A stretch of 59,183 nt of DNA, the filler included, from Jimgerdemannia flammicorona (Eukaryota), in the NCBI GenBank assembly GCA_003990765.1. It is 3 parts of 3 records of this genome, joined end to end, with 100 filler letters (N's around TTAATTAATTAA, not from the genome) between each part and the next. Parts side by side here need not be neighbours in the genome. Positions count along the whole stretch, not along the records: positions 19,762 to 39,422 come from RBNJ01001883.1; 2 more parts are not named here. The stretch is one strand, 5' to 3'. The stretch's first letter is position 1; each line of letters begins with the position of its first letter. The notes under the pieces were generated by a model. That model saw only the letters and a list, made by a program, of their open reading frames with translations. It was not told where the DNA came from and searched no databases. Positions 9,027 to 48,600 of this stretch are shown here, piece by piece. The translations under genes and the position numbers were made by a program.

Positions 9027-9029
9027 ACT

Positions 9030-11050: not shown

Positions 11051-11053
11051 ACA

Positions 11054-17839: not shown

Positions 17840-18067
17840 CATCTCTTTCTCTAGTAATATTCAGATTACACAAACTTTAAGCAACTCTCAAGACATCATT
17901 TTTGGAGAAAAGGTACTAACAATATAGTAACTATTGAGTATTCTGAAGTGTATGCTAGGTAGGGTGGCTCTAGTATATTTGACTGACAGCATATAGAGTA
18001 GAGCTATGGCTTGGGGGGAAGCATGAGGAGCTTGCTGGTAGGAGGATATAGAAGGAGAGGGGGTAGC
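17840..18067 (+). mobile_element. Degenerate LINE 5' UTR and ORF1 start, interrupted by a family A LTR
   Basis: ctttctctagtaatattcagattacacaa matches LINE 5' ends at ~32837, ~53401 and 24020(-); downstream G-rich sequence matches ORF1 start at ~33000. Confidence 0.75.
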
Positions 18068-19661: not shown

Positions 19662-19761
19662 NNNNNNNNNNNNNNNNNNNNNNNNNNNNNNNNNNNNNNN
19701 NNNNNTTAATTAATTAANNNNNNNNNNNNNNNNNNNNNNNNNNNNNNNNNNNNNNNNNNNN
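19662..19761. other. Artificial contig linker (N44-TTAATTAATTAA-N44)
   Basis: 100-nt N run with a six-frame stop spacer. Confidence 0.97.
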
Positions 19762-21990: not shown

Positions 21991-22020
21991 ATTGAATAAT
22001 GTTGGTAGGGATATCACAAT

Positions 22021-23940: not shown

Positions 23941-24021
23941 GTTGACAGTAGCTTTTCACCAAAAACTTCACAGAAAGTGTTGTCCAAATCTTGTGTCACC
24001 TGAATGTTACCGGTGAAAGGT

Positions 24022-26090: not shown

Positions 26091-26290
26091 AAATATTAAT
26101 TTTAAACTATTTATAGAAAATACTATTCTATATAATATAAAAAATAAATAAATAAACAAATAATAAAGATTTAAGAATTTATTAGTTTACAGTTTATAAA
26201 TCTTAACCTTTAAGTTATATATTTAAAAATTAAAAAATATTTTTAAAAATAATTAGCTATAATACTACTCTCTTATTTCTTAATTAGTAT

Positions 26291-29200
26291 TGTAATATAG
26301 TGAATACCTAATCTTAAAAGTATAGCAGATTTTTGTATCTTAAACCTTAATCTTATTCTAACTCTCACAGAGTTCTCAGAGTATAGAGGTATAAGTTCAA
26401 AATACATATATCTACCTATAGACTTATTAGTTCTCTTATTTTCTCTTTACTTTAAACTATTTTAATCTGAGATTTATTTACTCTAAATACTGGAGATACA
26501 TATTTATATAAGTTTGCTAGCTATAAGATGACTAAGTTATATATAACTATGTTTTCCATAAGTCATTTTTTATAAGTATAGATCCTTAATATCTGTAAAA
26601 TTTTAATAATTATTAAAATTCAACATCTGTTAAATCTTGATATTTATGAAATAACTACTATTTATATAGCTATACTATATTTGGGGATTGGGTTTAGATA
26701 TTGTAATCAAATCTTTATTCTCTTGATTTATATTTCTAATTCAGATCAATTATCATAATTTCCTTCTAAATAAGTATTTTATCTCTGAAGTTCTCTATTC
26801 ACTCAAACTCTCAAACTTCTATAAGTTGTATCTCCTTGTACTATGTGATTTGTATTATTATATTCTCTCAATAGTATCTTTTGATATATCTAAAGTCTCC
26901 TAAGACTACTTCTCAGAAATGAGCTAGGATTGACTCATTATCTTTAAATAACCTATATATTCTTTTAGTAATAGTAATATAGATATAAGAGAGCTAATAC
27001 TATCTAATCTAGTTTTCTTTTCTCATTTCTTACTATGAATTCAATAACTATTCCAACTTGAAATATTTTTGAAACTCAGTCTAGTTCTAATAGATCTTGA
27101 AGTATGAGATTTATGATAAGTATATTTATACTATACATTGGATACTATTGAAGAATTTCTCTATTGTAAGTAGCTCAGTAGTATACCATTATCTTTCTAT
27201 AGCTCATTGGATAGTACAGATAATCTTGAGAGCTATGGTAGTACTTTATTAAAAAGCCATAATACTTCTTTAGTTAGTTTTAGTAAAGATGATTATATCT
27301 GAGAGTTTTTATAGCCAAAAGGTAGTTTCTTTTATGTCTTATACAGATAAGATCCTTTCTACTTAGATTTCAATTTTTATAATCATGAGACTTCTATTAT
27401 ATTCCAATATACCAGAACTTTATCTTTTATCTTAATAATTTCTAAAGATTTATAAATCTTTTCTATATTATTCTACTGTAGAACTTGTATCCTAATTATA
27501 TAATTTCCAGTCTTTTTTCTGATTTGGTATAGTCTCTGTATCTCTATATTTATATATTTCTATATAATATCTTTATTAGATAATAAAGTTTCTTGAGAAC
27601 TTTTTTCTCCAAAGAGCATTTCTTATAGAGCAAAATAAGTACTTTGTAATTGAATATTCTGAAGAGCAGATAATGCTGTTAACAGATAGTGGTCTCAATT
27701 TTCATAGTTATTATAGATCTTAATAATAATATTCTTGAGAGTCTTGTTTGTCTTTTTTAATTATCTATTTTCTTAAGAGTAATAGACTATACTCCAAATA
27801 TATTGAATCTTGTACTTCTTGCAGAGAACCTCAAAGAACTAGTTCACAAATTCTGCTCCTCTGTCTGTAGTTACTTGTATTGAGGTCTTAAATTGACAGA
27901 TGATTTCTTTGTAAAAGAAATTGATAATTGACTATATATTTACTTTCTTGAGGAGTTCTGCTTCTACCTATTTTGTAAAAAGATCTATAATGATAATGAT
28001 ATATCAGTTATCAGTTAAAGTCAAGGGTAGAGGGCCAATTATATTTATTGTAATATATATAACTAGTTCTATATATACTAATCCTGTAGTCTGATTTCAT
28101 TTTTTTTTTTTTTAATAAACTCAGAGTTCTGTAAATTTTATTAGAAGAGAACCTAGACTATATAGGCCAAAACTCTCCCTCACCACCTACTGGACATTAT
28201 TCTTCTATTAACTTAGACTACTGAATTGTTCTACAGTCTTACTATTCCTACTATATACATATATCAGATATGCCAACTCCCACTATATAGACTAGACTTG
28301 TCTATTCACCAGAGCTGAATTATCATAACTATATATGAGAGCACACCTATACATCAGATCTAGTAATACTAGGACTGAATAAAGAATAGTCTTCTGAAAT
28401 CTAAACAAAGATCTAAGACAAAGAAAAACCCTCCAACTAGCCAATAGAAGACAGAATAGATTCAGAGTAGATAAGTAAAGAACTTATATAGAATCTCCTC
28501 AAAAGGACTGATATATGGGCTAAGACTTAAAAAAGCCCCACTCTTACTCTCTGAGCCTATAGACATCTGTATCAGCTCCCAGTTCTAGTCAGGTACTACT
28601 AAATGAGAGAGATCCCACTCTCCAAGCCTGTGGGTCTTAATTGTGTTACCACATCAGCTCTTAGTTCTAGTTGAATATAGCCAGGATACTGGCCTCTGTA
28701 TCACCCCACTCTCTGCTAGTCAATCAAAAGGCCCCACCAAGATAATGCCTGCCCTAACCCCAATGACTGTCCCCAGCCTAGTACCCTACTAGTCTATCAT
28801 TATCACTCTTCTGTCTATCTGTAACAGCCATCTCCCCTTCCATTCCAATACTATCTGAAAAACAGTTACCTATATCAGAACTACACTCACTAAGAAGCTC
28901 GCCAAAGCTCAGAGAGCCCCACCACAGATACTGAGGACCTGCAGGTAATCTATACTAGTACTTAATGCCCAAGATCAGCTAACTCCATACATATCCCATA
29001 ATATACCAGATGATATCTTGTAGATGATAGTAAAAAAAAAAAAGTACTATACTAAAATAAATATACTTCAGATATAGCTAAAGGAATTAGAAACTGTAAA
29101 AAAGTGAAAAAGACACTAATCTAATACTAATAAAGAGATAACTCAACACTATTACCTCTCTCTCACTATGCTCTTGCAGGTACAGCAAACTAACTCAAGA

Positions 29201-29639
29201 TAGTGAGAATAATAATAAAGGAAAGGGGACTCAGAAGATTACCTATCAAACCTTGTAACTAATAAGGTAGTAGAGAAAGAAGTATGGGGGTCTGATTTAA
29301 CTAATCTTATTTCTGTTTCTGATATTTGTTATAGATCTTGATAAATCATCTGATATCTTTCTCTATTTCTGACTATTATATTGTTCTTCTCACTTTATTA
29401 TATATATCTATTTCTTCTAGATAGCTAAGTTTATATACTAATTTTATTACTTACTCTTTTTTGTATTTAGTGTTATATAGTAGTCATGAGTCCTTCAAAT
29501 ATATCAGATTCTCTTCAAGGTATATCTCTTAGACTAACTCAAGTTTGTTATAAGCAAGTTCTTATTGGAGTGCCTTCCTAAGGTCTTATAGTCCTCAAAC
29601 TTCTTATCTTTAAACTGTCTTGTTATCTCTTAGATTGCT
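26291..29639 (-). mobile_element. Gypsy family B copy 2: integrase, post-integrase ORF, 3' LTR (26291-26757); interrupted at 28100-29289 and by family C at 29640
   Basis: LTR matches 44093-44594; internal part matches 44600-45800; IIGPLPLT and TDRGAEFVN integrase motifs. Confidence 0.85.
28100..29289 (-). mobile_element. Short (~1.19 kb) poly(A)-tailed non-autonomous retroposon, probably an internally deleted LINE
   Basis: T-run 28100-28113; GTCTGATTT duplicated at 28089-28097 and 29290-29298; host integrase sequence resumes after it; 5' end CCCCATACTTCTTTCTCT...TTACA resembles LINE 5' ends; G-rich body on minus strand. Confidence 0.65.
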
Positions 29640-29922
29640 TATAAGGAATTATATATAAGTGAACCAGAACTGACTTTATTTCAGAGGAAATAAGAAAGGT
29701 ATATACAAAATATAATTCAATGGTTGCTAAGATATAAAGCTAAATATAAATTCCAATAATCAAATAAAATGCTGGAACACAGAAAACTGCCAAGTTCCAG
29801 TGCCAGTACAGATGGTTGCACAGGTTCAGGATACTGATATGTATAATTTTAGTAATACAAGAAAAGGATGCTGAAATAATTCTGAGTCACATAAGGTCAG
29901 AATGCTGGTGGAGGAACAGCTG

Positions 29923-31357
29923 TTATACAGGAAAAGAATGCTGGCATAATTCAGTATAACCAAGCAGAAAGTTCAGGACCATAGGGGCTTCATCTTCATC
30001 AGAGGTCAGGATGTCTTTGAAGGAGATGAGATCTATGAATGTTTCATCTGTCTCTTCATCATCACATAGGTCATGTGTTTCATGTATGTCATGTATGTTG
30101 TGCAGGATGATGTCATCACTAGTGCTCCGAACGAGTCAATCCGGATGGGATTCGGATGGATTCGAATCAACCATTGTTTTGATTTCCAAATTAGACAAGT
30201 AAATGTTTGCATCAATAACTCGATGAATAATCATCCAAATTTGATGATCTTAGAGTCATTTGAAAGCCCTTAATAAGGCCTTTCTAATGATACCAAGAAC
30301 ATTAAAATCGGATCATGTGTTGCTGAGTTATGAAGGAAACCGTGTGAATCACCAATTTTGGAAATTTCATCAAATAGAACGTTTTCCTTAATATCTCGAC
30401 AACACGTAATCCGATTTTAATGTTCTTGGTATCATTAGAAAGGCCTTATTATGGGCCTTCAAATGACACTAAGATCATCAAATTTGGATGATTATTCATC
30501 GAGTTATTGATGTAAACATTTAATTGTCTAATTTGGAAATCAAAACAATGGTTGATTCGAATCCATCCAGATGGGATTCGAATCCCATCCAAGTTGATCC
30601 AGATGGGATTCAATCCAAATCAATCCAAATCCAATCTGGATTAAATTGACTTGTTAGGAGTACTAGTCATCACCAATGATATCATCATGTTCAGCAGTGG
30701 CAGGAACAAGGAGGTCTGGAGCTCTCCAGTCTATGAGGTTCTCTTCTATGAAACAGGAGATAAATGTGGGGTCTTGGGGAGGTCTGACCTAGATGCTGGG
30801 GCCTTGGAATACTGAGATCAATCTTTGCAGGAATTGATCTGGGTTGTCTTGGAGGATAGGATGCTAGAAGTCTTCTACTTCATCACTATTGAGGGTGATA
30901 GTGGATTGGGCTTCTGTAGTCACTCTGGCTTCTAGTATATTGATATGGCAGGCTGATAGATCTCTGAAGTCTGAGACTCTAACATACTCTAAGTTGGGGA
31001 TCAACTATAGTACATACCTGAAGATCTGATGAATCTTCTTAGCTATCCTTGTTTCACATATATCTATGGAAGTGGTATCTTATAACTCTTGAGGGCTGGC
31101 CTGTGGGAACTCCCAGCAAAGAAGGTTTCTTATTTTTACTCCTGCTACATTTGGAGATATTTGGTAGCAATGGTGATCCTTGTTTCTATTTCATAGCAGT
31201 AGAGAATAAAGTGATAAGGATCCATAGTACCTAGGTTGAGGCTAGGAGTCCTTCTTGTATAGATCCTTATGACTCTTCTGATGTCTTGGAACATTCTTTC
31301 TTCAACTGAGATACCTTGGTGGTTCCTTGACCTTGAGGTTTGGTGAGCAGTAGGCAT
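29923..31357 (-). pseudogene. Family C LTR-embedded accessory ORF, split by a MITE
   Basis: MPTAHQ...YCYEIETRI...RIAKKIHQIF...IPNLEYVRVSDFRDL...QDNPDQFLQRLISVF...DDEETDETF; frame is restored across the MITE when it and one TSD are removed; diverged homolog at ~52760-53390. Confidence 0.7.
30120..30665. mobile_element. hAT-type MITE/foldback element (546 bp)
   Basis: Termini TAGTGCTCC...GGAGTACTA; perfect 8-bp TSD GTCATCAC (30112-30119, 30666-30673); ~200-bp near-perfect inverted arms; subterminal GGAT/ATCC repeats; no transposase. Confidence 0.9.
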
Positions 31358-32825
31358 TTTATTTATAGTAAGTCTTTGAGCTATTTTGGGATTGGTGGGT
31401 CTTGTTGAGTTACTGCTACTGTGGTTTCTTGATTCTTCTTTTATATTCCTCAAGATGTCTGTTCTGTAATTATAATGACTCACAGTTGGTCATTATTACT
31501 CATTTCATAGTCTGAGTGAGTCATACTATATGATCTTCTTATACTCCAATCTGGTGGCTTATAAGGAAAGGCTGTCTCCTGTGCTGATATCATCATTCTG
31601 AGATCACTATTATATCTTCCTTCTGAATAAGAATCTTCTTGAACATCCTTATTCATTAGTCCAGTCCTGAAAAATTTGCTGATCTCATAACCTCTGACAA
31701 GGGGTCAAAAAGTAGTATTTATGGGCTAGTATCTTCTCTATATATTTTGGCATAATGGTGAAGGGTCGCTCTCTTCATATAGAGTAAAGGCCTGATTCTG
31801 ATCTTAATCAATCAGTTGATGGTTTGAACTTCTCTGGCTTCAAAAGTCTCATGAATGAATAGTTGCTGATACTATATCTCTTAGAGAATAGTCCAGTCAG
31901 ATAGCCTGCTGGTTACAGGATATATTGTTACAATTTGCAGACTAGAATCTTGTAGACAGTTATTACATTTTGCTTCTCTTATATAAGTTCATAGTACTTC
32001 TTGAGTCTATTCCTATATACTGTGGTAGGTAGTATGGTCTCTGAGATTTTTCTAAGCCAGAAGGTAGTTTTCTTGATATCTTGCACATAGAAGGGTCTTT
32101 CCCATTTGGGCTCCAGTTTTTACAACCATGAGACTTCTACTATATTTTGATACAGTAGAACCTTTTCTCCAATTTGAATGGGTTCTAGGATCTTATAATT
32201 CTTTTTTGCATTTTTTCTCATCAGTACTTGTGACTTGATAATATAATCTTCAGCCTTCTTTCTGATTTGGTGTAGTCTCTAGATTTCTGAGTCAATCTAT
32301 CTCAGATTTGTAGCTGAGGTTCCATCAGAATCTTCTTCTCCAAAGAGCAGTTCTATTGGGAAAGTGTATGCTCTGTGACTATATATCTCATAAGACAGAG
32401 GAGGTAGTTGGGAGGTAGTTATTCTAATTCTCATATGTGCCTGAGATCTTCACCAGGATGTTCTTAAGAGTCTTGTTGATTCTCTCTGTCTGTCTATTTC
32501 CTTGAGGGTGATACATGGTGGTCTTGATGTACTGAATCTTGTATTTCTAATATATTATCTCATAAAATCCATTGACAAATGCTGTGCTATAGTCTGTGGT
32601 GATTTGTCTTGGTGTCTTGTAGTAGCAGATAATTTCTTGGTATAGGAAGTTAGCTATAGAGAGAGCATTGGCTTCTTGTAATACTCCTGTTTCTATCCAT
32701 TTGGTAATGAGGTCTATAATAACTATAATATAGCAGTTTCCTGATAGTATTACTGATAGTGGTCCAATAATATTCATTGCAATATAGTGGAAGGAGATTG
32801 GCTCAATTCTTGATGATCTACAAAT

Positions 32826-35800
32826 ACTCCCCCCATCTTTCTCTGGTACCATTCAGGTTACACAACCTTCGGAAGGCACTTATAACATCATTTTTAGAGA
32901 AAAGAGACTAACAACATGGCAACCAACAGGTAATCTGAGGTATGTACTTGGCAGAGTGGCCCAAGCACTTTCAAATAGCAGCAGGTGGGGAGGGGCCCAG
33001 GCCTGGGGGGGGGCATGAGGGAGCTGCTGGCAGGAGGATACGGAAGAGGTGGAGGTATTGGTGGCAGACAAGGGTCTGGGAGAGCAAGCTTTGCAGAGAT
33101 GGTGAAGGGGAGGCAGCAGGTGTCAGGGCTGGAGGGCTGGCTGAGGAGGGGCAAGGAGACTGAGAAGGTGGTGGTGCATGGTGGAGCAGCCCTTGAAAAG
33201 GAGGGCAGTGGAGCTGGGGGAGTAGTGGCTAGAGAGAGTGTGACTGCTGATGGCAACAGGACTGCTAATCTGGAAAAAAATCCAGATGTGATGGCTGTTA
33301 GTGAGGCTGAGCAGATGAGGCTTGAAAGACAAGGAGATTTGGCAGATGGCGTGATGGGCCTGGTGGTGGCCCTGTTACTCAAAAAATCAATCTCGGCATT
33401 TGTAGTTACACTGTGCTTCCAGGGCTTAGTAGTGACAGTGAAAATAGTGCTGGGGCTTATTGCTAAGCAGGTGGCAGGAGCGGTATCAGTGAAGTTTTTA
33501 AAGAGACTGGAGAGTGTAGAGGTGGGCTTTGAGGAGGCAGAGCCACTGGAGGAGGCATTGAAGGTTAGATTGGTGGTTGGCAAGGTGTGTGTTCTGATAG
33601 CAAGGTGTCTGAAATGGGATCCAAGGGTGATCCAACTGCTGGTGAAAGGAGTGCCCATGGTGATGGCGATAGAGATGAGAAAGAGAGTTGAGGATGTCAT
33701 GGCAGAGTATGGCGAGGTGGTGAATATCAGATTCAGGGTCTGGGAAGGGACCTCGCTCAGAACTGAGGATGTAGATGTGAGGATTCAGCTGGCTGGGAAA
33801 GATGCTACTGGGAAGGCAAGGGACTGGCCTTCAGTGATAGTCTGGAGAGCGATCTTGTGTAAGGTGATAAGGATAAAAGGAAGTAAAGAGGAGGAAGAGA
33901 ATTTATTAGAAGCACTGGAAGAATTGGATGGTACCATGGAGCAGCATGCAAAGGCTTGGAAGGCTTCATAGAGTTGATGCACCTGGAGGTGGTGGATGGA
34001 AAGAGGATTTGAGTGGACAAGATGCAGTGGAAAAGGGCTCAGAGGTATAAGAGATAGAAGGATCTGCTGGCTAAACTGAGGAACAGACCACAGGAGGATG
34101 TGAGTAATATGATGGGTGCAGAAGGGACCAAAGTAAGTGACTGGGCTAGTGAGAGGAGTGGGAATGCTAGGGAGGAGACAGGGAAGGCAAAGGAGGTGAA
34201 GATTATTAACCCATATGCTGATGGCACCTTGGAGGTTTGGGAGGAGGTCTGGAAGGATTCCCCCACTCCTTCTCCTCTTATCAGGTGAGGCCTAGCTTCC
34301 AGAAACAAGATGGTGGAGGACATGACAATACTGGAGACCCATCAGGTGAAATTCAGCATTCCAGAGGTGATGGGTAGGAGACATGTGGTGGCTGCTGGGG
34401 AGGAGGAACTAGTGGATGTCCCAGAGGTATGGGATGAGACTGTGAGTGCTAGAGCTGACACTATAATACTGGATGGAGAGAGGCCAGCAACCCCTGGAGG
34501 GAAGGAGGTGGGGAACCTACTTTGGATGTGCAGGATGATGAATAACCTGGTAGCAGAAGAGTTAGGAGAGGTGGACTTGCGAGTGATGGGTGATGAGCAC
34601 TGGGCATGGATTTTGTAAGGGGATGGAGTGATGATGGCACTGAAGATGGAAATTCTCATAGTGTATCTGGAGGAGGAAGGATATGAGGTGGACAAGGAGC
34701 GGGAGATAGAGATGGTAGTTGTTGCTGGGGAGAGGGCTGAGTACTGTTGGAACAAGCATCATAGATTGCAGCTTTGGCAGGAGGCTTACATTGAGTACTG
34801 GGAGGAGTTTGAGAAGAAGGCAGATGGGGAGATGAATGAGCTATTGGCTGGATTGGAGGCTCAGAGGGCTGAAGAGGAGGAGGTGATGGCAGAACATAAT
34901 CTAGACATAGCACAGGAGGAGATAAGCATGGAGCAGTAGAGATTGACTGATAAAAAATCATATTTCATTATGAACAGTACAACCAACATTTTTTCTATGA
35001 ATGTGAATGGGCTACGGGGTGCTGTTAGACATAGGAATATTTTTATTTGGCTAAAGGGATTGGAGGCCGATCTCTTCCTCTTACAGGATATTAGGTGCGA
35101 GAATGACTCTGATAGGTTGGAATGGACAAAGGAATGAGGTGGTATGGTAATTTGGAATGGCAAGGTTGGGATTCTGGTTCAGAAAGGCAGAGGGGAGATA
35201 AGAGATATGAGGAGTTGGTGGGAGAGGCTGGTCTGGGGTGAATGGATTCGTGCAGGCTGGGAGCCAGTTATAGTTGGATCCTGTTACTGTTCTGCCATAA
35301 GGGGGGAGCATATAGATTGGGTGAAGGGTCTCCAGGAGAGTGGAATCCTGGCAGAGGCTGGAGTAGATATGCTTGGGGGAGATTTCAATATGGTTCGAGA
35401 TGTACAGAAGGATAGAACTGATGAAGGTTGAGGTGCTAAGAGTCAGAGTGGGGGGCTGGCGATGTGGGAGGAAGTTGAAAGACTAGGAGCACTGGTAAAT
35501 GCTGGTAGAGAGTACTGGGGGGATAGGAGGGTATATATGCATTGGGCTGGAGGCCTGGGGACAAGGATCGACTGGGTTCTGATAGCCAACTGTTGGGGCC
35601 ATGATGTTTGAAAGTTGCTGGAGGTGGAATAGTGTCCATGGTCAGATCACTGGAGCCTTTTGGGACAGGGGTGCTTTGGGGGAAGTAGGGATGGGCCTGG
35701 ACATTGGCGCCTAAATTCCTTCTTGTTAGATGATGGGTCTCAGTGGGAGGAGTAGGCTAAAGACATTCAGCTGAGGGTGGAGAACTGATGGCAGAAAGGT

Positions 35801-37879
35801 GTCTCAATTGGGGTTCAGTAGATGAGGATAAAAGAGATGGCCAGGATGTACTGGAGTGAGGCTGGCAAGGTGGTGAGAAAGCAGTAATAGCAGAGAGTGC
35901 ACTGGGCTTCTACTAAATTGGCTAGGCTTCTGGAGGAGTGGACAAGATTGGCGATGGTGGAGGGAGAAGAGGATTGGAGAGTAATGAGGGCAAAGATGGA
36001 GGTTGGGAAACTATAACAGATGCTGTGGGAAGAGGAAGAGGCAAGGGTGCAAAGCTTGGTAGCATGGCTTCATTGGTAGGGGCTGGAGGAAGGGAAAAAG
36101 TCTTCCAAGTTTCTCATGAGGACTCTTAGGGTGAGAAGGATATAGCAATGATTGGAAGGGGTATTTGACTCAGATGGTGTACTAGTGCATGGTGTACAGG
36201 ATATTTTTGGATCACTGAAGGAGTGATGGAGTGGATTGTGGAGTGAGGAGGAGGGTGGGGTGGATGCTACTGCCATTGACCGAATATTGGAGAATTGGCA
36301 CTCATCATAAGTTATGGGACTAGATGATCTGGTAATACCTGTAAAGGAGGATGAGGTCCACCAGGTTCTTGCCATGACAGCCTCAGGTATAGTACCTGGG
36401 GAGGATGGCCTACCCTGGGACTTCTGGAAGTAAATGGTTGGAGTCTCAGGTGTGATAGGAGAGTTGATGGCATTGTGTGACTCTATATTGCAGACAGGAA
36501 GATGGGTGGGAGAGCAGGATCTTGGGCTGGTGACACTGCTTTATAAGAACAAAGGAAGGTGAGAGGACTGGAAGAACTGGCAGTCAATAATGTTGCTAGA
36601 TATGGACAGAAAGTTAGTGACTAAGAAGGCTACAGAAGATAGCCCAGCAAGTTGTAGGGGTTGAGCAGAGGGGATTTGTGGGTGGTCGGCTTATTAGAGA
36701 TGGCACAGCCTGGGTACATAGAGTTATTGAAGGGGCTAGAGCATGTCAACTGGATGGGCAACTAGTCTTCTTAGACCAGAAGAAGGCTTATGACTGAGTG
36801 CGATGAGTCTGGCTGGTGAAAGTATTGGATAGAATGGGGGTTCCAATCCAATTTCGGTCAGCAATGATCAGCCTACTGGAAGAGAGTAGGGCTGCACTCA
36901 TGTATAATGGGCATAGAGGGGTAGTATTCCCTCTGGGTAGGGGGGTGCCCCAGGGGGACCCACTGTCCCCCATCTTGTATGCACTTTCCCTAGAACCCCT
37001 AATGGATAGAATTAGGCAGAAGATAGTAGGGCTCTCTATCTATAGCATTGGGTGGAAAGTTGGGGCCTTTGCAGATGATATGGTGGTTGGTCTGGGATCG
37101 ATTGCTGATGTGGAGGAGCTCAAGAAGACAGTGGAGTGATATGAGGAGAACTCTGAGATGAAGCTGAATTGGTACAAGTGTGAAACAATAGTGCTAAACA
37201 ATGGCCTTGTAGGAGGAGAAGTTATAGGAACAATTGTCCCCACTGGTGAGGCAGTGCAGTACTTGGGTATCTATTTGTCAGTCTATGGATCAGTTCTGCC
37301 CAGGCTTTGGTGGGAGCAGCGAATTGGAATTTGGGAGGAGGACCTGTGGGGTTGGAGGGGAAGACACTTTTCTCTGGTGGGACGGGTCTTGATTTTGAAT
37401 GTATATTGGCTGCTGAAGCTGTAGTATTTGGCTTATCATCTAGACTTCCCGGCCTGGGTAGTGAAGAGATTAGTGAAGGTGGCCAAAGAATGGATTTGGG
37501 CTGGCAGATAGAGCCAGATTGGTTGGGAGACCTTGTCCCTACTGGTGGCGAGAGGTGGTCTTGGGCTGGTGGACTTTCCCAAATAACTACACTGCTTGAG
37601 GGCATGGTGACTTAAGAGAGTGATGGAGTTGCGAGGAGAGAGTTGGGTTCCCCTGCTGCAGAAGGTCTGAGAGAGGCAATCATCACTGAGAGGCTCCACT
37701 GGTGATCTTCTCTCTTTGGTTGAAATTCAAAACACTGCACAATTGCAATATAGAGGCTTCTGGTGGGAGATAGTGGAGGGGGTACACCACATTGGTATTC
37801 GCTGGCAGGGGAATAAGGGAGAGGAGGCTTGGGACCTGGCAATGTGGAGATGGGATAGCATACTACTAGGCAGCATGCC
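32826..37879 (+). mobile_element. LINE copy 3 (5' UTR, ORF1 32916-34939, ORF2 from 34970), interrupted at 37880 by a family A LTR
   Basis: Conserved 5' motif CTTTCTCTGGTACCATTCAGGTTACACAA; MNSTTNIFSMNVNGL; GVPQGDPLSP; FADD; many nonsense transitions. Confidence 0.95.
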
Positions 37880-37896
37880 TGTAAGCGCACAACCTC

Positions 37897-37991
37897 CAAG
37901 CCACTGAAATTACACGTCACCCTCTGAACAAGCCACTGAAATTACACGTCACCCTCTGAACAAGCCACTGAAATCACACGCGACCTCTGAA
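37897..37991 (+). repeat. Three tandem ~32-bp repeats at LTR start (U3 enhancer-like)
   Basis: CAAGCCACTGAAATTACACGTCACCCTCTGAA at 37897 and 37929, variant at 37961. Confidence 0.9.
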
Positions 37992-38199
37992 CAAATCTGG
38001 AAATCACCTGCTTGATCACGAAGCTGAGTCAAACCAAAGTCACAGTGCACAAAGCTGAGTCAATACGAAGTCACGGAACACAAGATCTACACAAACGGAA
38101 CCTTACCAATCAGGACCAAATGCATATATACTGAGCACCGAGACGCGTCGAATCAGAGAACCAAAACAAACAACAACCACAACTTCCAAACACACAAAT

Positions 38200-39297
38200 A
38201 TGACCACTGAGATCTACAACCGCATCCGCGCTGACATTTGGAATGCCATTGTCAATCGAGCCACACCCCCTCTGCCCCTCATGAATATCCATAGCCTGGC
38301 CCCCCTCTACTTTGTGGAAGCCCGATGGAATGCCCTGAACATGCTTAGCGAGGCCCACCAAATCGGACAAATCTCAAGCTACTACCAGATCAGCCGCCTC
38401 CTGGAAGACATGGTCGAACACCACCACAATACAGACATGACCCAGATGTCTCAACACTAGAAGCTCATCACCCGCAAACATCAAGAACTCTTCTACGAGT
38501 ACAACACCTTTATTCCCCACCTCCGAGTTACTACTAGCGAAATGGTTGCTACCCTGTCCTATAGCCAAATCGATGACATGATATAAGAAATCAACCACAA
38601 GTACCTCGAGTATGTTGAAACCACAGACAGAACCTTCCCGCACCCTGATGACCACATCCTGCAAATGCCTCAAGTCGGATATGCCATGAAGGACATCTAT
38701 GATATAATCCACTTCGATGAAGACGAAGCAGAAGACAATGATCCCTCCGACGCCGACATGACCTCTAGCCAAGGATCTCTGCCAACCCTGATCACTCCGC
38801 CAATCTTGCCAATGAACTTACAACAGTTCATAACTGTATACAAGACTTATTGGGACAATGACCACTGGCACGAATACCAATCTGTGTTCACCCCCGATTA
38901 CTTCAACTACAATGAAGAGACCGGAGAACACAACCTGTACCTCCAGACAACTCTCGAGATTGAACCAACCACTCCACCACCCGAGTACGAGCGACTTGAA
39001 TCACAGCTGCCAGCTTACTACAACCCCGCGACTCATAGTGCTGTAACCTATAGAAGGTACGCAGATAGTGAATCCGATGAAAGCGAAGACAATACACCCA
39101 TCCTTCGCCCACCAACACCTTATCCAGCATACGAGACAGATGATGCTATCCTGTGGGATGGTGACGAAGTCCCAATGTATTACTACCTCAGCCAACAAGG
39201 AGAAGTAATCCGCGAACCATTATTCCTAGACGACTACTTCATCAGAGATGATGCAATCGATGGTGATGTCATCGAGGAATACCCAGACAGTGCCTAA
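38200..39297 (+). pseudogene. LTR(U3)-embedded accessory ORF, 365 codons, near-intact; product unknown
   Basis: ATG 38200 to TAA 39295-39297 in one frame; only two stops (CAG>TAG 38458, CAA>TAA 38584), both Gln in the 18745-19661 copy. Confidence 0.88.
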
Positions 39298-39422
39298 ACC
39301 TATAAATAGTCTAGCAGTCATAGTATAGATAGATTAGCCTTGTACGACGTGACTGTGAACTGACTCAGCAGTCAGACGATCTCTTGACATGTCAGATCAC
39401 ACTTGTACTACGTGACTGCATT

Positions 39423-39522
39423 NNNNNNNNNNNNNNNNNNNNNNNNNNNNNNNNNNNNNNNNNNNNTTAATTAATTAANNNNNNNNNNNNNNNNNNNNNN
39501 NNNNNNNNNNNNNNNNNNNNNN
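39423..39522. other. Artificial contig linker (N44-TTAATTAATTAA-N44)
   Basis: Identical to the linker at 19662-19761. Confidence 0.97.
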
Positions 39523-41150
39523 TTTTTTTTTTTGTCATTGGTTATCTCAACTAAGCAAATGGGACAATAAATTCGGAACGTGGATTCGCCTCACAATTTT
39601 CACTAACATGCGCACTTGCCACTCTCGATCTTCATACACATTCTTGCCTTCCTCATCGACAGACCAAATACGCTCGGCTGACCATCTCCGAAAAACCACA
39701 TGCCGAAAACGTCTCACCGCGTTTGTTCCACAATCCAATTCCTACACAACCCCGAGCTGGTATTGGCCGACCCCGACCAACATCTTCGTACCTGGTGCAC
39801 CAATTTTTTTTCAACAAACGTGCCTGCCATGCAAACGTACCAAATTGACCACGCTGATTAAGGTGTCATTTTTCTATGAAGTGTATATGATGTGGAGATT
39901 GGTCTCGTTGTCAAAGTGGTGCATTCCGAACGCTGGTGTAAGAAAGAAACGGGTACGTAGTGCACGAAACGCAACGTGTAATCCATCGTAGGCTTACTCA
40001 TGCCGCGTATATTATGTGTGTCGAAACAAACAACCCTTCCCTCAAGTGGACTTTTAGGGACGATAGAGATCCCATATAGTAACTTTACAACCATGAGTAC
40101 ATGCATCAAACGTCATGTGGTAGCTGATTGCTAATGCCAATTAAAAGAATACGCCCATCACTGATGAGATTTCAAAACCATGAGGACAATAATTGATTTC
40201 GCCAAAGTAAGGTTACTATTTTCTATCTCCTATGCTCGCTACTTTCCAGAACCTCATGGTCATTCCTTTTTCCCACCGCGCTGCCATCACTTAACGTATC
40301 AGCGCATCAACATGAAATTGCTCCCCTGTTACCGGCTTCGTATGAATCCATAGAATAAATATTTCGTCTCCGTTCACCGGGGTTAAAGTTCGACTTAGCG
40401 CGACGTCACATGTACACATGTAACTGTTCTGAAGTTTGTATGCATGTTGTGTAAAATCGAAAATGGACCGACCAAGTTTCCGGTTGAACATGGTATTGAA
40501 TTGAAAGTATGCGGTTGTGGGAAAGGTACACGCATGAAGGATGGAGCAAGTTCGTGTAAGCCGAGGCTCTGCAATATTTTATTTTATTTTTCCCCTTCCG
40601 ACAGTAAGTACGAAACACGTGTAAAAAACGAGGTTCCAAATGATAGAGACGGGAGAAAGGCATTTTCCCACGCCACAGGAATATGCCCACCCTGTCTCAA
40701 CCATTGCGGTGTAACATTCATTATTCCAATGAGACGTAGCCGATTTTTGCTATTTAGTGCTAAGCGAAGCTTACCAATCAATACCGAGCCACAATTACTT
40801 TTGAATGAGGCTGTGACATTGTCGTCGGGCTGTGGGTGTAGAAGTTCCGATTCGGGCCTGCGTTGTAGACAGTCGCAACGGACTGGCTTGGCCATGTCGG
40901 GGGATTCTTTCTCCAGGATACACTGTAAGTATGCAGGGTGTGTTTACTGGACTCGTCCAGGACCTCCGGGATTTAGATGGCCCGACCGACGCATTCCAAA
41001 ATCGCCCCGTTGTGACATACATCAAAAATTAAAAAAAAAAAATCCCAAAAGTGTCCTTGGTACGCCAGGCGATCATAATATTTGCCGAGCACCAGTGGTC
41101 GATCGTATGTTCAACTATTGGTTCATAATTTCAGGGGTTGATTAGGAAAT

Positions 41151-41407
41151 TAGATCTCCGCAAACAGACCCGATCCGGAGTTTAGACCCAGTCCGTCAAA
41201 CGTTCATATCCCGACGAAATGGCGCCCGAATTTAATGATCATTAGCTCGTTGTATCCGCCTTGCAAGGGGAATATAACAAGTTGCGGGCCAATAAATTTG
41301 GACGTCATTTAATCGAGATACAATGCGTTTGACAGGCCGGGTCTAAACTCGGGTCTGGATAATCTTTTCCTGGGTCCAGTCGGGTCGGATCTGTTTGCGG
41401 AGCTCTA
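41151..41407. mobile_element. hAT-type MITE (257 bp)
   Basis: TIRs TAGATCTCCGCAAACAGACCCGA / TCGGATCTGTTTGCGGAGCTCTA; inner inverted block GAGTTTAGACCC...GTCAAACG; flanks TAGGAAAT/ATGGAAAT (6/8 TSD match). Confidence 0.82.
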
Positions 41408-42253
41408 ATGGAAATAGACTTCATTCCACGTTGATAAAATATCTTGTAAAGCGCAGTGTCTGAGCCTCGTTCATTGGACACGCTCTATATCTGAATTAGG
41501 ATGTGGACCGATTTTGGCCTCTATTCACCATGTGACACCATCGTCCACGCTGTTTTTACTTTAAACCCTTCCGGAGCTGGGCCAAGAACGCTTACCATAA
41601 ATATTTTCTCCCGCGTCGACCACGAGGGAACGCTCGTTTCGGGTATTACATAAATGATGACCTAAATTTACTAAATTTGGCGAGGCCCTGCACTTTATCA
41701 CTCGTTAGCAATATTATATGGTTCAGGTAAACGAGTTTCACCAACAACCGAATAAGAAATATCCGCGTACTCCGCGAAGAGAATTGCCTTTGATTTTTTT
41801 CCTTTTTTTTATTTTTTCATGGGCTAGGGCGACCAAAGAATCTACGAGTTGTATCCGCGCTTCTGCCATCTAGATGTTTACCCATGCCACCCCTCTCCTC
41901 ACTTCACCCTTTCACCCCCTGAGAGCGACGACCACCAATATTCCAACCACGCTGCTTTCCCACCCCTACCCCGACTTCCGGGGTTGACGTGACCAACGCT
42001 ATAAGCAAATGCCGATCCTAAATAAGGTTCTCCAATGCGCTTTCTAAGTGAACCCAGTTCTCCAGACTTTTTGGTCTCGTGGTTTTATTTTATTTTCCTA
42101 TCTTTACACCAAATTTTAATTGTTTGTCGCATACAGTCTACGTCATAGGAGTTCCAACCATATAAACACTTTCCCAGTCTGATTGAAACAACTTAAAATC
42201 AAACTCAAATCCATCCATTGTATATCGTAGCCCAATCTTTCAGCCAATCCGAT

Positions 42254-42613
42254 ATTGGCAACATATTCTCCCGCCGTCGTGTCTCAAAACGTCGGTCCCG
42301 CGCACCTCCTGAAGATGAAGTAACCCGTCTTAGCTCTATGATGGAGGTGTACGGTGTATTCATTATACGCTTCATCCAAATGATCCACGACCGCATCTTG
42401 GTGAAGAATCGTAAACGCTAGGGCAGCTTTGTGGTGTTCGATTTATGGTTCCCGAACTCCGAGCCGGAGAGACTAGTGGCGACCACGGCAAAAGGCCCAG
42501 CGGATAGTAAGAATCGAAAGGAGATGTTGAAGAAACTCAAACCCGTGGAGTGCAGCGCCTGGAATCGCCTTTCACAATTAATAACATTCGCATTTACAGG
42601 ACGGCGAATCTAA
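42254..42613 (+). pseudogene. Small unknown ORF, copy 1 (start codon lost, one in-frame TAG, 3' end replaced)
   Basis: IGNIFSRRRVSKRR...PPEDEV...VYGVFIIRFIQMIHD...PERLVATTAKGPADSKNRKEMLKKLK; inverted homolog at 42958-43366; TATAAA at ~42161. Confidence 0.55.
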
Positions 42614-42729
42614 AACCACACCACGTGACTTATTTTCTGTTGCAATACCAAAATTTAACTAGATACACACTAGGCTAGAACCTTAATCAAGCTACCATTT
42701 GCCCTGTGAGACTGCAACAAACTCTGCTG

Positions 42730-42731
<2 letters not shown>

Positions 42732-42764
<33 letters not shown>

Positions 42765-42766
42765 CA

Positions 42767-42807
<41 letters not shown>
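42732..42807 (-). repeat. Long poly(A) tract on the minus strand (tail-like)
   Basis: Two T runs split by CACC; AATAAA on minus strand at ~42862-42867. Confidence 0.8.
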
Positions 42808-42811
<4 letters not shown>

Positions 42812-42957
42812 CACTTCGATTGAGTTTTGAGTTTATATTTTCATATTTCTTGAAGGAAAGGTTTATTATGCCAGAACTTAAAAATCCTGAAGGGGAGGCT
42901 AACTGGCTTTTTTTTTATTATTATTTCATTTGAGATATCTTTTAAAAAACTCCCATT

Positions 42958-43366
42958 TCAATTTTCTTCCATCATCTCAATCGTCGTTAGTTCCAACTTG
43001 AATCTTTCGAACTCCGCTTCGGTCACGTCAAAGCGCTCATCAACGAGACCCCAAAAAATTGTCCAGTTCAGGCGATTACATTCTCTGGACTCTACGGACT
43101 TGAGTTTCTTCAATATCTCCTTTCGATTCTTACTGTCCGCGGGATCTTTTGCCGTCGCCGCCACCAGCCTCTCCGGCTTCGAGTTCGAGAAACCTGCCCC
43201 GACGTTTTTGTTTCTTCAGCTGGACATTGTCGTGGATTATCTGGATAAAGCGCACAATGAACACACCGTACACCCCCATTATAGGGTGAATGCGGGATAC
43301 TTTATCTTCAGGGGGTTCGCAGAATCAACGTTTTGAGGCACGACGGCGAGAAAATGTGTTGCCCAT
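42958..43366 (-). pseudogene. Small unknown ORF, copy 2 (starts MGNTFSRRRASKR; stop and frameshifts)
   Basis: Homologous to 42254-42613; TATA-like box ~75 nt upstream; 3' UTR with AATAAA and poly(A). Confidence 0.55.
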
Positions 43367-44619
43367 GTTGGATTTGCTGAAAGGACAGGGTTAAGTGTAA
43401 AATGATGGATTCAAGTTGTTTCAGACTAGACTGGAAGGGTTTATATAGTTGGACATTTTTAGTCTGTGAATCCTTGAATGATCCTCTAGATTCAAAACTA
43501 TGAATAGGGTAACCTTTATTTGCGGGGACAACCCCCAATTTTACAAAATATATTAAAATATATTATTCATGCAATTCACTGGACCCCAAGTTCAAGTACA
43601 CAAAATGGTTGAATGGGATCGATTACCTTGAGAAATATTGCGAATGATCTTCGTATTGCTTGATGAACTTCACTGCTGTGCAATCAATTATTATCACAAG
43701 CAACCAGAGATATGTGCTTGTTCCTTGTTTCAAGCACTTGGTGTGTAAAGCACATGGGTATTTGACTACAGAATTTTCACTAGACCAAACACGACTATTA
43801 GGAAAGAAACCCGAATCTAGTGTTGAAGGCATCATAAACAGCTTGCAATCTAAGGCTATTATCCAAGATAGATGAATACAAAATTCACGTCGCTGTTAGG
43901 CCAAGCACACCATTTTCCAATATTTGCCAGACTGTCTGCCCACAATAAATAATGTAAATAAAATCAGATGGTTTATTCGCTTCCATGTATTAGTTATACA
44001 TAACTATGTTCCCTACATAAATATCCACCGTGCTAGACAATTCTAAAGCATTCAAGCAAATGCCAGTAGACATGTCAATATTTTGGATATATTGTAATGT
44101 AGTGGACATGTAACTGTGGAAGTATGTCAGATTTCTGTATCTTGGAAACTTGATCTTCTTTGACTCTGCAGAGTTCTCAGGATGTAGAGGTGGGTGAGTT
44201 CAAAGTGTATCTGCCCACAGGCTTACTAGTTCCTTTACTTTCTCTTTGTTTTGGACTATTTCAATCTGAGGTTTATTCACTCTAGATACTGAGGTATTTA
44301 TACAAGTTTGCTAGCTATAAGATGGCTAAGTTATGACTATGTTTTCTGTGAATCACTTTTTATAAGTGTTTAATCTTTTAACATCTACTAGAACTTTGAT
44401 TATTGCTAAAAGTTTAACATCTGCAAAATCTTCAATATCTGCAAAGAGTTTAACATTTGTGAAAACTTTAACAGTTGTAGAATAATAATGACTACTATTT
44501 ATAAGACTATACTATATCAGAAATTGGATTCAGATACTATGATCAAATATTTAATTCCCCTGATTTAGGTTCCTAATTCAGATCAACCATCACAACTTCT
44601 TCCTGAATAGGTGATTTAT

Positions 44620-45110
44620 TCCTGAAATATTCTATTCAAACTCCCAAGCTTTTATGATTTATATCTTCTTATACTATATAATTTGTATCATTATATACTC
44701 TCAGTGGTATGTATCTCTTGATATATCCAAAGTTTCCTGGGACTACTCTATGAAGATGGGCTGGAGCTGGCTCATTATCTTTGAATATCTTGTTGACTTA
44801 TTTGGTAATTGTGATCTGAGCATAAGAGAGCTGACACTCTCTAATCCAGTCTTCTTTTCCTATATCTTGCCCCAAGTTTAGTAGCTATTCCAACTTGAAG
44901 TATTCTTGAAACTCAGTTCAGTTCTAGTATACTTTAAAGTGTGAGATTTGTGACAAGTGTGTCTGGACTATACTCTATATACTGTCAAAGGATTCTTCTA
45001 TAGTTGGTGGCTCAATAGTGCACCATTGTCTTTCTATGGCTTACTATATAGTATCAATAATCTTGAGGGCTGTGGCAGTACTCTATTGATTGGCCATAAT
45101 ACTTCTTGAG
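44620..45110 (-). pseudogene. Family B post-integrase accessory ORF
   Basis: QEYFKLE*LLN...ITITK*VNKIFKDNEPAPAHLHRV; second copy ~26880-27075 reads KYFKLE...ITKRIYRLFKDNE; boundaries approximate. Confidence 0.6.
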
Positions 45111-45119
45111 TCAGTTTTA

Positions 45120-48100
45120 GTAAATGATTGTATCTGAGAGTTTTCATAGCCAAAAGATAGTTCCTTTTATATCTTGCACCAGATAAGGTTTTCATGACCA
45201 TGAAGCTTCTACCATATTCCAATATACCAGAACTTTGTCTCCTATCTTGATAATCTCTAGGGGCTTGTAAATCTTTTCCATATTATTCCATTATAGTGTC
45301 TGTATCTTGGTTATGTAATTCTTGGCCTTCTTTCTGATTTAGTATAGTCTTCATATCTCTATGTCTATATGTTTCCATACAGTATCTCTATTAGATGATA
45401 GAGTTCCTTTGAGAACTTTCTTCTCTGAACAGCATCTCTCAAGGGATGAAATAAGTACTTTGTGATCAGATATCCTGAAGAGCAGATAATGCTATTGATT
45501 AATAGTAATCCCAATTTTCATAGTTATCACAGTTCTTAGTAATGATATTCTTGAGAGTCTCATTGGTCCTTTCTACTTGTTCATTTCCTTAAGAGTGGTA
45601 TACTGTAGTCTAAATGTACTGGATCTTGTTTCTGTTTCTGACATTTGTCACAGATCTTGATAAATTGTCTGATTTCTTCCTTTATTTCTAACTACTATAT
45701 TGTTCTTCTTGCTTTATCATATGTGTTTGTTCCTCTTAGATAGCCAAGTTCATGTACTGATTTCATTGCTTACTCCTTCTTATATTTGGATATGACTAGT
45801 AGTTTTCCTTTCTTTAATGTTTCTCTATCAGTCTTGAATTATTTCTATGTTCTGTTGATAATTATTTGTGTCCATTCTTTCAGATATTGGGGCATCTTTC
45901 ACTGTCTCAGATAGGTGATGATTCCATAGTAGAGCTCCTTATTCATAATTGATTTGCTGGTTAGAGGTCCTTTGGAGTATCTGTGAGAGGGCATCTATAT
46001 TGACATTGATTCTTCCTAGATAGTACACAATAGTTATATCATAGGCTTGCAATATTATGATCCATCTAACATAGATTCCTTTGGATTGCCTGGTGGTCAG
46101 TAGTCAAGTGAGGGCTAAGTGGTTCATCTGAATAGTGAAGTATCTTTCTACTAGATAGTAGTGAAACTTCTCTATAGCCTAGATGACTGTAAGACATTCT
46201 AACTTATAGGATTTATACTCTTTTTTAGCTTCTCAGGTTCCTTGGCTGAGATATACAATGATATATTCTACCTTGTCTTTCTTCTGGACCAGGACTGCTC
46301 CTAGTCCTTGAGTACTTACATCTGTCTGCAGGATGATTTCTTAAGTCCAATTGGGTCTTCTGAGGATAGGTACCTGGGTCAGTCTGACCTTAAGTTCATC
46401 AAATATTTTATTGTCTGCCAGTCTATTGGAACTTGATATTCTTTTTGTTGTGTTTGTAAATTGGGCCTGTGATATTAGAGAATCCTCTAATAAATCTTTA
46501 GTAGTAGGAGGCAAGTCCTATAAAGGCTTGGGCTTCAGGAACTGTAGTGGGCCTTGGGTATAACTACTGCTTGAATCTTGAGGGAGTCTGTGTGTATTCC
46601 ATCTCAATTGATAACATGGCTAAGATAAAAGATCTTGATTTCTACAAACTTGTACTTTTTGGACTTGATGTAAAGACTATGCTGTCTTAGCTTCTCTATT
46701 ATCTACTAGATGTGCTGTAGATATTCTTCAGCTGTCTTGCTGCAGATAATAACATCATCCACATAAACCATTATCTATCTTCTCATATCATAGTGGAAGA
46801 TTTTGTTCATCATTCACTGAAAGCTTGCAGGGGTATTGCACATTCTGAATAGTATTCACAGATAGATATAAGTTCTATCTGGGGTGATGAAGGCTCACTT
46901 TTCACTTGCTACTTCAGTGAGGCTGATTTGGTAGAATTCTGAGTATAAGTCCAAGATGCTGTAGTATTATGCTTCATCTTCCAAGGTTAAAAGGATGTCA
47001 CTGATGAGGGGTAATAGTTGGTGATCTTTCTTGGTAATCAGGTTGAGCTTCCTGTAATTAGTGCAGAGTCTTGGGGTGAATTCTCCTGGCTTGCTTTCTT
47101 TTTTTAGGGCTAGTACAATTGGTAAAGCCCAGGGGCTGCTGACTTCTTTAATGATACTGACTTCTTCCATCTGTTTGATTTCTTCTCTGAGCCATTCATA
47201 GTAGGCTAGTGATATTGGTCTTGTGTTTTGATAGACTGGTTCTATGTCTTCTATGTCTATATCATAATAGTAGTGTGGGATCTTTCCTTTGATATCCTTG
47301 AAATCCATAGCTAGAACATCCTCAAATTTATAGAGTATCTTCTTAAGTTCCTTCTTGAGTAGGAATTCATTTTCAATAGTATAGCTATACTTGTTCACAG
47401 TTTTCTCCTTTTTGTGATCCAGTTCAGTGATCTTGGTACTGGCAAATACTCCTCTTCCTATGGATCTGAATTCTTTCCTTTCTCTTTCCATTTCCTCCAA
47501 CTTCTTGACTTCTATAATCCTTGGCTGAAGAACTGAGAAGATCAATATCTGTACTAGTTAGTCCTTCTTCTTGATTGGAAATGGAATCATAGGATTGTAG
47601 TTTCTAGCAATAAGTAGTATTTCTCCAATATAATCTAAATCAATAACTTCTCCTTTAATTGTGATTTCACTTCTAGTCAGGCTGCTTCTTGTCTTGAGGA
47701 TTCTGATATAGTCCTTTGGAATGGTTATTTCCAGATTAGTTACAAGTAGGGTGGTTGTCTGGGGCTCTAGTATAGTTTCTTCTACTGTGACAATATCTAT
47801 TCTAGCTGCATTCTCTGACTTATATTCTGGTAAAACTACATCAGAGTGGATCCTCTGAATCTTGACCTTGATTTCTTCTTCATCATCACTGTTCTCTAGG
47901 AGGGCTGGTGGTTCATCATCCTTTTCCTCCTCCTCCTCTTCTCTTGTCTGCTTTTCAAGAGCCTTTTGTCTTCTTTTCTGGTAGATCTTTCTGATGTCAA
48001 TACTATATTGATAACAGTCATTGATGTACTTACTACAGTATATCTTGATTCCATAGAGGCAGACTCCTTGTGGTATATATCCTTTTGCAATCTTCTTGCA

Positions 48101-48600
48101 CTAGTCTCCTTCACTGATCTATCTGACTTTCTTCTTCTTTTTCTCAGTAGTCACCATATAGGCTTCTTCTTGCTCACTTTCTTCTTTCTCTATCTCAGGC
48201 AGCACTCCTTTGTTGACATTAATGAGAATTCATATCTTCTGGTCTCAGTAGATGATCTGCATCTTCTGGGCATTCAGATCAATTATTGCCTTAGCTTTAT
48301 GAAGCCACTGATTGCTGATGAGAATATTGTAATTAGTGGCATTGATCACAATCACATCTACTGAAATAGTTGCTCTCCCAAACTTGATGGAAACATCTCA
48401 GATATTTCTCAGAGATGTGGCTCTTATTCTATCTACTGTGACAAACACTAGCTTGATTGCATCTTCAACCTCCCAATCTAGACAGTCTACTGCTTTCTTA
48501 CTGAGAAGACATCCTTCTGCTCTTGTGTCAATGATGGCCTCAAAGATTCTATCTTCAATCTGACAGATTGTATAGATAGAGGTCTTGCAATTGTCTTTAC
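45120..48600 (-). pseudogene. pol: Family B pol remnant (PR, dUTPase, RT, RNase H, integrase with core deletion near 45630)
   Basis: ORF-track 46967-47545 (RT N-terminal part); CDKCQK zinc finger is joined directly to the YHS*GNEQVER region. Confidence 0.88.
47456..47880 (-). pseudogene. dut: Trimeric dUTPase domain between protease and RT (family B)
   Basis: AA(R<G)IDI, TRSSL, EVIDLDYIG, LVQI, ERERKEFRSIG (G>A-decayed RGxxGFGSTG). Confidence 0.85.

Follow-up and report, generated by a model that had tools for sequence, protein, structure and literature searches.

A selected orphan protein gene within the long terminal repeat of a high-copy Ty3/gypsy chromovirus

Long terminal repeats (LTRs) are generally regarded as non-coding regulatory DNA and, to our knowledge, accessory genes inside LTRs are essentially confined to a few complex retroviruses. 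The sag gene of MMTV is an open reading frame (ORF) in the U3 of the LTR that encodes the superantigen of this vertebrate retrovirus, a type II membrane glycoprotein. The nef gene of HIV/SIV and the bel2/bet genes of foamy viruses run from the 3′ end of the genome into the U3 of the 3′ LTR, and their products play regulatory or adaptor roles on host pathways. Extra genes of unknown function are also carried by Ty3/gypsy elements, as exemplified by Ogre ORF1, the env-like gene of Athila and the ‘add. ORF’ of bdelloid and fungal elements. Two published accounts place the extra ORFs of LTR retrotransposons in the internal region, ahead of gag or behind pol (PMC6431247, PMC2864245). The same accounts record a dUTPase as an extra pol domain of fungal chromoviruses (PMC2864245, PMC6431247) and dUTPase-bearing gypsy elements in basidiomycetes and Tuber (PMC2864245). 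In the literature that we searched, which is limited in coverage and includes few subscription journals, the only relevant papers concern MMTV, and none describes an LTR retrotransposon with an ORF in its LTR or U3.

Here we describe a 365-codon ORF that is a real, selected, orphan protein gene within a high-copy chromovirus LTR, an unusual place for a selected protein gene. By position its closest analogue is MMTV sag: in both cases an unusually long LTR harbours an entire accessory ORF (~320-365 codons) 5′ of its TATA box and poly(A) signal, so that the ORF is present in both LTRs. The two differ in other respects. No sequence similarity between them was found, the chromovirus protein is strongly acidic and has neither a hydrophobic segment nor a cysteine, the chromovirus family comes from soil and root metagenomes rather than from a T-cell-bearing vertebrate, and the ORF has a promoter-like module of its own. 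Whereas nef and bel2/bet overlap U3 only partly and are expressed from spliced RNAs, the chromovirus ORF is located wholly inside the LTR, and its product carries no myristoylation signal at its N-terminus (MTTE) and has no similarity to theirs. The genes of Ogre, Athila and the bdelloid and fungal elements resemble it as additions of unknown function to a Ty3/gypsy element, but occupy the internal region instead of the LTR. The protein is not assigned to the Sag, Nef or Bet families, no Pfam, PDB or sequence similarity to them being found. We consider it likely that the ORF is a real accessory protein gene of a dUTPase-bearing Ty3/gypsy chromovirus. Being inside the LTR, it is doubled at both ends of every copy and retained in solo LTRs.

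The window, by which we mean the whole 59,183-base stretch of DNA analysed, consists of three pieces of exactly 19,661 nt each (1-19661, 19762-39422 and 39523-59183), joined by N44-TTAATTAATTAA-N44 linkers at 19662-19761 and 39423-39522. Because the pieces are joined artificially, features touching the joints are cut and neighbourhood across the linkers carries no meaning. Nests of transposable elements make up all three pieces, and one of them contains the complete LTR retrotransposon to which the ORF-bearing LTR belongs (6946-17573, plus strand). Its 5′ LTR (hereinafter designated c1, 6946-9026) and 3′ LTR (c2, 15542-17573) form paired repeats of 2.03-2.08 kb with TG..CA-type ends, are 85% identical and are flanked by a 5-bp target-site duplication, TAAAT, at 6941-6945 on the left and 17574-17578 on the right. 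The sequence TTAGTAGCAG directly after 9026 resembles a primer-binding site, its likeness to the tRNA-iMet site being degraded, and a polypurine tract (PPT), AGAAGGGGAGAG, at 15529-15540 ends one base before the 3′ LTR.

The internal region (9027-15541) is strongly decayed through C>T and G>A changes and was translated through its many stops as X before the Pfam search. It encodes gag with a CCHC knuckle, dUTPase, protease (PR), reverse transcriptase (RT), RNase H (RNH), integrase (INT), an SH3 domain and a putative, sub-threshold chromodomain, in the order gag-dUTPase-PR-RT-RNH-INT-chromo. The Pfam matches run dUTPase (1.2e-23, ~11090-11460), RVP_2, RVT_1 (2.7e-25), RT_RNaseH (1.1e-18), Integrase_H2C2 and SH3_Tf2-1; Chromo follows at the expected place at E=9.6e-4, with 19.5 bits against a cut-off of 25.1 bits in this heavily decayed copy. 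The paired LTRs, target-site duplication, PBS-like site, PPT and pol order PR-RT-RNase H-integrase are those of Metaviridae, and a previous reading of this DNA from its sequence only (hereinafter designated the sequence-only reading) was right to assign the ORF to a 2-kb chromovirus LTR.

Two further copies of this LTR are shortened by the ends of the pieces at 19661 and 39422, so that their truncation is not biological. Copy c3 (18068-19661, minus strand) comprises the 3′ 1594 nt of the LTR and terminates in ...CTCTTACA at 18068. Copy c4 (37880-39422, plus strand) comprises the first 1543 nt of the ~2.09-kb LTR, begins TGTAAGCGC and is without the last ~550 nt, including a second TATA box and an AATAAA that are both present in c1-c3. 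The loose end of another copy, found in a public-run contig, reads PPT followed by TTGTAAGCGCACAACCTC at the LTR start, showing the same PPT-LTR junction.

The ORF is found in all four LTR copies, as the sequence-only reading had stated. It is seen in full in c4 (38200-39297, plus strand), with an A at -3 of the ATG, the closest in-frame upstream stop at 38056 and a terminal TAA at 39295-39297, and is interrupted there by TAG at 38458-38460 (codon 87) and TAA at 38584-38586 (codon 129). In c3 (19659-18745, minus strand) the ORF is visible from codon 60 and open over 257 codons, its sole stop being a TGA at codon 319 (18886-18888). The remnants in c1 (7242-8343, plus strand) and c2 (15806-16893, plus strand) carry 10 in-frame stops and a 4-nt insertion, and 11 in-frame stops and a 10-nt deletion, respectively. 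Every window copy is therefore broken, with stops that, as had been claimed for c3 and c4, do not overlap between these two. Frame-breaking indels, which in young copies would speak against a gene, occur in the old c1 and c2 only. The indel that separates c3 from c4 was correctly read as in frame, but its size is 6 nt (residues EA) and not 3 nt; it is a deletion in c3 relative to c1, c2 and c4. A tblastn search of the rest of the window with the ORF protein returns no match outside the four LTR copies, indicating that the protein has no similarity to gag or pol of its carrier or of the other window elements.

One position of the frame has mutated repeatedly. Codon 319, Trp TGG in c4 (39154-39156), is a stop in c1 (TGA), c2 (TAG) and c3 (TGA; 18886-18888). 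Since c1 and c2 differ, and since the metagenome relative P0003 (see below) keeps Trp, the stops at this codon mark a hotspot of recurrent G>A change and do not reflect shared ancestry.

An A- and C-rich strand has fewer stop codons in some frames, and a chance open frame in such skewed DNA would account for the ORF with no gene at all. The distribution of stops leaves this explanation next to no credit. In c4 the ORF frame has 2 stops and the remaining frames have 14 and 27. In 2000 dinucleotide shuffles the observed frame is never approached: the best of three frames averages 15.5 stops and the lowest count in any shuffle is 6, none being at or below 2. The 257-codon open run of c3 is equalled in 0 of 1000 shuffles.

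Nearly all changes that distinguish the older copies c1 and c2 from c3 and c4 are C>T or G>A, and their rates depend on the 3′ neighbour of the cytosine (CpG 0.73, CpA 0.39, CpC 0.24, CpT 0.11). The observed/expected CpG ratio is 0.01-0.13 in most older repeat stretches and 0.21-0.47 in two of them, compared with 1.08 in the low-repeat stretch 39523-44000. Such a pattern suggests that the host methylates cytosines in repeats or subjects repeats to a RIP/MIP-like process. Together with the soil and root sources of the LTR family and the dUTPase gypsy elements of basidiomycetes and Tuber (PMC2864245), it points to a fungus as the probable host, and a link with the truffle (Tuber) dUTPase elements is conceivable.

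For a test of coding selection, c1 versus c2, the two LTRs of one insertion, served as a neutral control. These LTRs were identical at integration, so their differences arose after insertion and are unselected, whereas c3 and c4 belong to different insertions and therefore also differ by changes that arose in the replicating lineage. Between c3 and c4 the ORF has 57 differences, 35 synonymous and 22 nonsynonymous, distributed 14/6/37 over the three codon positions. In the control, 62 of the 177 ORF differences are synonymous and 115 nonsynonymous, with codon positions 73/39/65, and the synonymous/nonsynonymous split departs from that of c3-c4 with a Fisher p=6e-4. NG86 dN/dS is 0.134 for c3-c4 versus 0.441 for the control, in which a strong transition bias brings the ratio below 1; the normalised omega for c3-c4 is ~0.3, part of the c3-c4 differences being post-insertion decay. 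Over the last 46 codons, c3 and c4 differ by 8 synonymous changes and 1 nonsynonymous change. The selection test covers two window copies and two database proteins; polarising the differences between c3 and c4 by reference to c1 and c2 as outgroups proved confounded by C>T decay of the latter and was set aside. Purifying selection acted on the ORF in the replicating lineage, and the neutral dN/dS that would have told against the sequence-only reading is not what these copies display. Together with the shuffles and the concentration of differences at third codon positions, the contrast between c3-c4 and the control rejects a chance open frame, against which the conserved protein relative described next also argues.

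Searches of 5.8 billion protein clusters, at lengths near, below and above that of the query, and of 1.84 billion representatives yield only two relatives of the ORF protein, P0003 and P0004, both orphan metagenome proteins. P0003 (247 aa, on a 998-nt metagenome contig) is 64% identical over codons 115-364 and open over 247 codons, with two in-frame indels relative to the ORF and the same C-terminus. P0004 (128 aa) is 89% identical, shares the start and is open across the first stop site of c4. In simulations, a neutral copy at the amino-acid divergence of P0003 stays stop-free in 0.4-2.4% of cases (3000 runs per setting), a figure to be set against the fact that gene callers record only open frames and so bias P0003 and P0004 towards openness. 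Scans of metagenome_contigs, viral_contigs and genome_contigs reveal no DNA of ORF relatives.

These relatives also bear on whether the ORF might be a passenger, taken up from a host gene or left over from older coding DNA and no longer of use to the element, its open frame in c3 and c4 reflecting nothing but their youth. LTR retrotransposons can transduce host fragments, all 4 window copies are broken and the ORF has no recognisable function, each of which would suit a passenger. We nevertheless judge a passenger quite unlikely, given the synonymous excess over the within-element neutral control, the intact frame and identical stop position of the 64% relative P0003, and the lack of any host homologue among the 5.8 billion clusters or 1.84 billion representatives. 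Nor is the ORF a fragment of a known host or transposable-element gene as far as Pfam, PDB and protein-cluster searches extend, all of which return no match.

Four public runs, of soil metagenomes and ‘organism A’, supplied contigs that we placed on c4 at a likeness of at least 80%. Run X1 contributes 2855 contigs on a 1.5-kb stretch of c4, indicating that the LTR family is abundant. At 38458, 32 of 32 X1 contigs read C, and at 38584 C makes up most of the depth. As the other copies have C at both sites, the two stops of c4 are private C>T changes. Indels with a share of at least 10% in the public runs occur only at 38156 and 38164, both 5′ of the ATG. Soil and root metagenomes are the sources of the LTR family.

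The ORF spans positions ~321-1418 of the ~2090-nt LTR, between the LTR start and a conserved TATAAAT/AATAAA pair. At the LTR 5′ end, c4 has three tandem 32-nt repeats (37897-37992), of which c1 has two and c2 one. These are followed by two tandem 31-nt repeats (38017-38078), each with GCTGAGTCA...GTCAC around the core TGAGTCA, which by its consensus may be a bZIP (AP-1/Gcn4-type) site. All 8 window matches to GCTGAGTCA fall inside the four LTR copies, with 0.45 expected; the looser TGASTCA is not enriched across the window (20 matches versus 12 expected). A TATA-like box, ATATATAC, at 38124-38131 lies 69 nt 5′ of the ATG, is kept in c1, c2 and c4 and gives way to a CA-rich leader. On the 3′ side of the ORF, a TATAAAT kept in all 4 copies directly follows the stop codon (39301-39307), and two copies of a GTGAC...TGACTCAGC module, at a 63-nt spacing (39336-39418), match the reverse complement of the repeats that precede the ORF. 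In c3, a second TATAAAT (18549-18555, minus strand) sits in a 40-nt block that is almost unchanged in c1-c3, decayed copies included, ahead of the AATAAA poly(A) signal of the R/U5 region (18426-18431, minus strand). From the AATAAA to the terminal ...TTACA of the LTR is ~360 nt.

The second TATAAAT, ~120 nt before AATAAA, is likely the genomic-RNA promoter. As this is the usual spacing of the two signals, genomic RNA would start there and the ORF would belong to U3; the sequence-only reading, too, had put the ORF upstream of both TATA box and poly(A) signal, a position that fits these motifs. Judged from the TATA and AATAAA motifs, the ORF probably lies in a U3 of ~1.64 kb. We infer in addition a separate promoter for the ORF, composed of the TGAGTCA repeats and the TATA-like box. 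The LTR 5′ end, with its tandem repeats, TGAGTCA repeats, TATA-like box, CA-rich leader and good ATG context, is the usual place of retroelement enhancers and promoters, and could instead launch the genomic RNA itself just after the box at 38124; the ORF would then be the first cistron in a very long R/leader, repeated at the 3′ end. Such an arrangement appears unlikely to us. It implies an R of ~1.6 kb and a strong-stop DNA of ~1.9 kb, both far beyond the usual range, and gag would require reinitiation or an IRES; moreover, it leaves aside the second, better conserved TATAAAT at the usual U3/R/U5 spacing. Splicing from genomic RNA is a further conceivable route to ORF expression.

The repeats on the two sides of the ORF also raise the question of its origin. 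Inverted repeats of 34 nt and 31 nt (74% complementary) surround it at 38023-38084 and 39336-39369, likewise in c1, and might be read as the ends of a small mobile element in its own right, which entered an ancestral LTR and has been carried along by it since. The arms, however, are internal tandem duplicates with a TGAGTCA core and fit regulatory repeats better than transposon termini, and neither a target-site duplication nor a transposase-like protein is found with them. In addition, the cassette is never seen apart from the LTR, and public-run depth is alike over the ORF and its flanks. An inserted cassette is accordingly very improbable.

Returning to an accessory gene of the LTR itself, the motif layout would permit the following scheme. 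Each LTR would carry two similar promoter modules, each with paired GCTGAGTCA...GTCAC repeats and a TATA box. From the first module, for which the 38017-38078 repeats are the proposed upstream element, any LTR could produce a monocistronic ORF mRNA of ~1.5 kb that ends at its own AATAAA, the cap being far enough from the LTR poly(A) signal for that signal to be used. The second module, for which the repeats at 39336-39418 are the proposed upstream element and which is situated ~120 nt ahead of AATAAA, would serve the transcription of genomic RNA and thereby leave the ORF in U3. Taken one step further, each LTR, solo LTRs included, may be a self-contained gene with a bZIP-site/TATA promoter, a 365-codon ORF and a poly(A) signal, whose protein acts as a regulator, either a transactivator or a silencing/chromatin antagonist, and whose dosage would rise with each insertion and survive LTR-LTR recombination. 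Such a system would be the equivalent, in a retrotransposon, of the accessory genes in retroviral U3 regions, and its host a soil eukaryote, probably a fungus. We offer this extension tentatively, as an idea more apt to need revision than to hold in full.

The encoded protein has 365 aa (~43 kDa, pI 4.3), no cysteine, 1.4% lysine and 7.9% tyrosine. Residues 171-365 contain 44 D+E versus 7 K+R, along with 20 Pro and 27 aromatic residues. The blocks best conserved in P0003 are DDHILQMPQV, LQQFIT.Y.TYW, FTPDYFNYNE.TGEHNLYLQTT, AYYNPAT, PPTPYPAY and EPLF.D.YFIRDD.ID, and their conservation implies that the acidic half is more than a low-complexity tail. The sequence-only reading had described a helical N-terminal half and an acidic Pro/Tyr-rich tail. 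The composition bears out the tail, while the helices (residues 3-170) are no stronger than a weak prediction for the N-terminal ~170 residues: AlphaFold2 on a 4-row alignment gives pLDDT 31 and pTM 0.18, and the model is unusable for the fold. The PPxY motifs noted earlier are indeed present in c3 and c4 (PPEY, LPAY/PPAY) but are not conserved, as P0003 has no [LP]PxY; this speaks against a PPxY late-domain or WW-domain adaptor.

The ORF protein has no Pfam family at E<=10 and no PDB sequence relative (the best match, at E=0.15, is at chance level), and the open stretch of c3 has no usable match in the Protein Atlas. A sequence motif search detects no DNA-binding domain, NLS, hydrophobic segment or other functional motif. 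Acidic activation-domain transactivators with a Tat/Tax/Bel1-like role fit by composition alone, with no targeting domain recognised. With low confidence, then, composition points to a protein-interaction or regulatory factor, activation-domain-like or chromatin-binding. The anti-silencing factor, transactivator or host adaptor envisaged in the sequence-only reading would each be a candidate role. In the most speculative part of the scheme, the acidic-aromatic C-terminal half would be the interaction module, resembling an activation domain or binding histones or chromatin, and the protein would aid transcription of the element or counter host silencing rather than serve a structural or enzymatic function.

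A selected gene in the LTR of an ordinary retrotransposon with a very high copy number would have several consequences. Protein expression could persist from solo LTRs, which are mostly regarded as dead remnants, and genome annotation in which LTRs are masked would overlook one class of transposable-element proteins. The product would also be a new orphan protein with which to study the effects of retrotransposons on host transcription and methylation-based silencing.

The surroundings of the four LTR copies consist of other mobile elements. A gypsy RNH-INT remnant occupies 3200-6900, and the low-repeat stretches 39523-44003 and 3200-6903, scanned in six frames against Pfam, show this remnant only and no host gene. 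A second dUTPase-bearing gypsy element at ~44092-50548 has LTRs of ~500 bp (44092-44595 and 50046-50548) and a dUTPase upstream of its protease (46967-48100, minus strand, Pfam E=1.3e-15); within the window, tblastn finds no match between this element and the LTR protein. Two different Ty3/gypsy elements of the window thus have a dUTPase before the protease (1.2e-23 and 1.3e-15). A LINE of ~5 kb with an APE endonuclease and RT is present in four diverged copies (1-3144; 19764-24100, minus strand; 32838-37855; 53403-58407), which are 64-72% identical, have a GC content of 50-57% and show an extreme GC skew of ~+0.4 to +0.5 on the coding strand. Copy c3 of the LTR adjoins the 5′ end of one LINE copy, and c4 begins 24 nt past the 3′ end of another. 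In the Protein Atlas, an RT query from the LINE matches generic RVT_1 clusters only. Extended poly(T)/poly(A) tracts and A/T runs coding for poly-lysine (‘KKKKKK...’ or ‘FFFFFF...’ when translated) are located at 42600-42700, in the low-repeat stretch, and at 3620-3700, beside the gypsy remnant, and are probably the tails of LINEs or retroposons.
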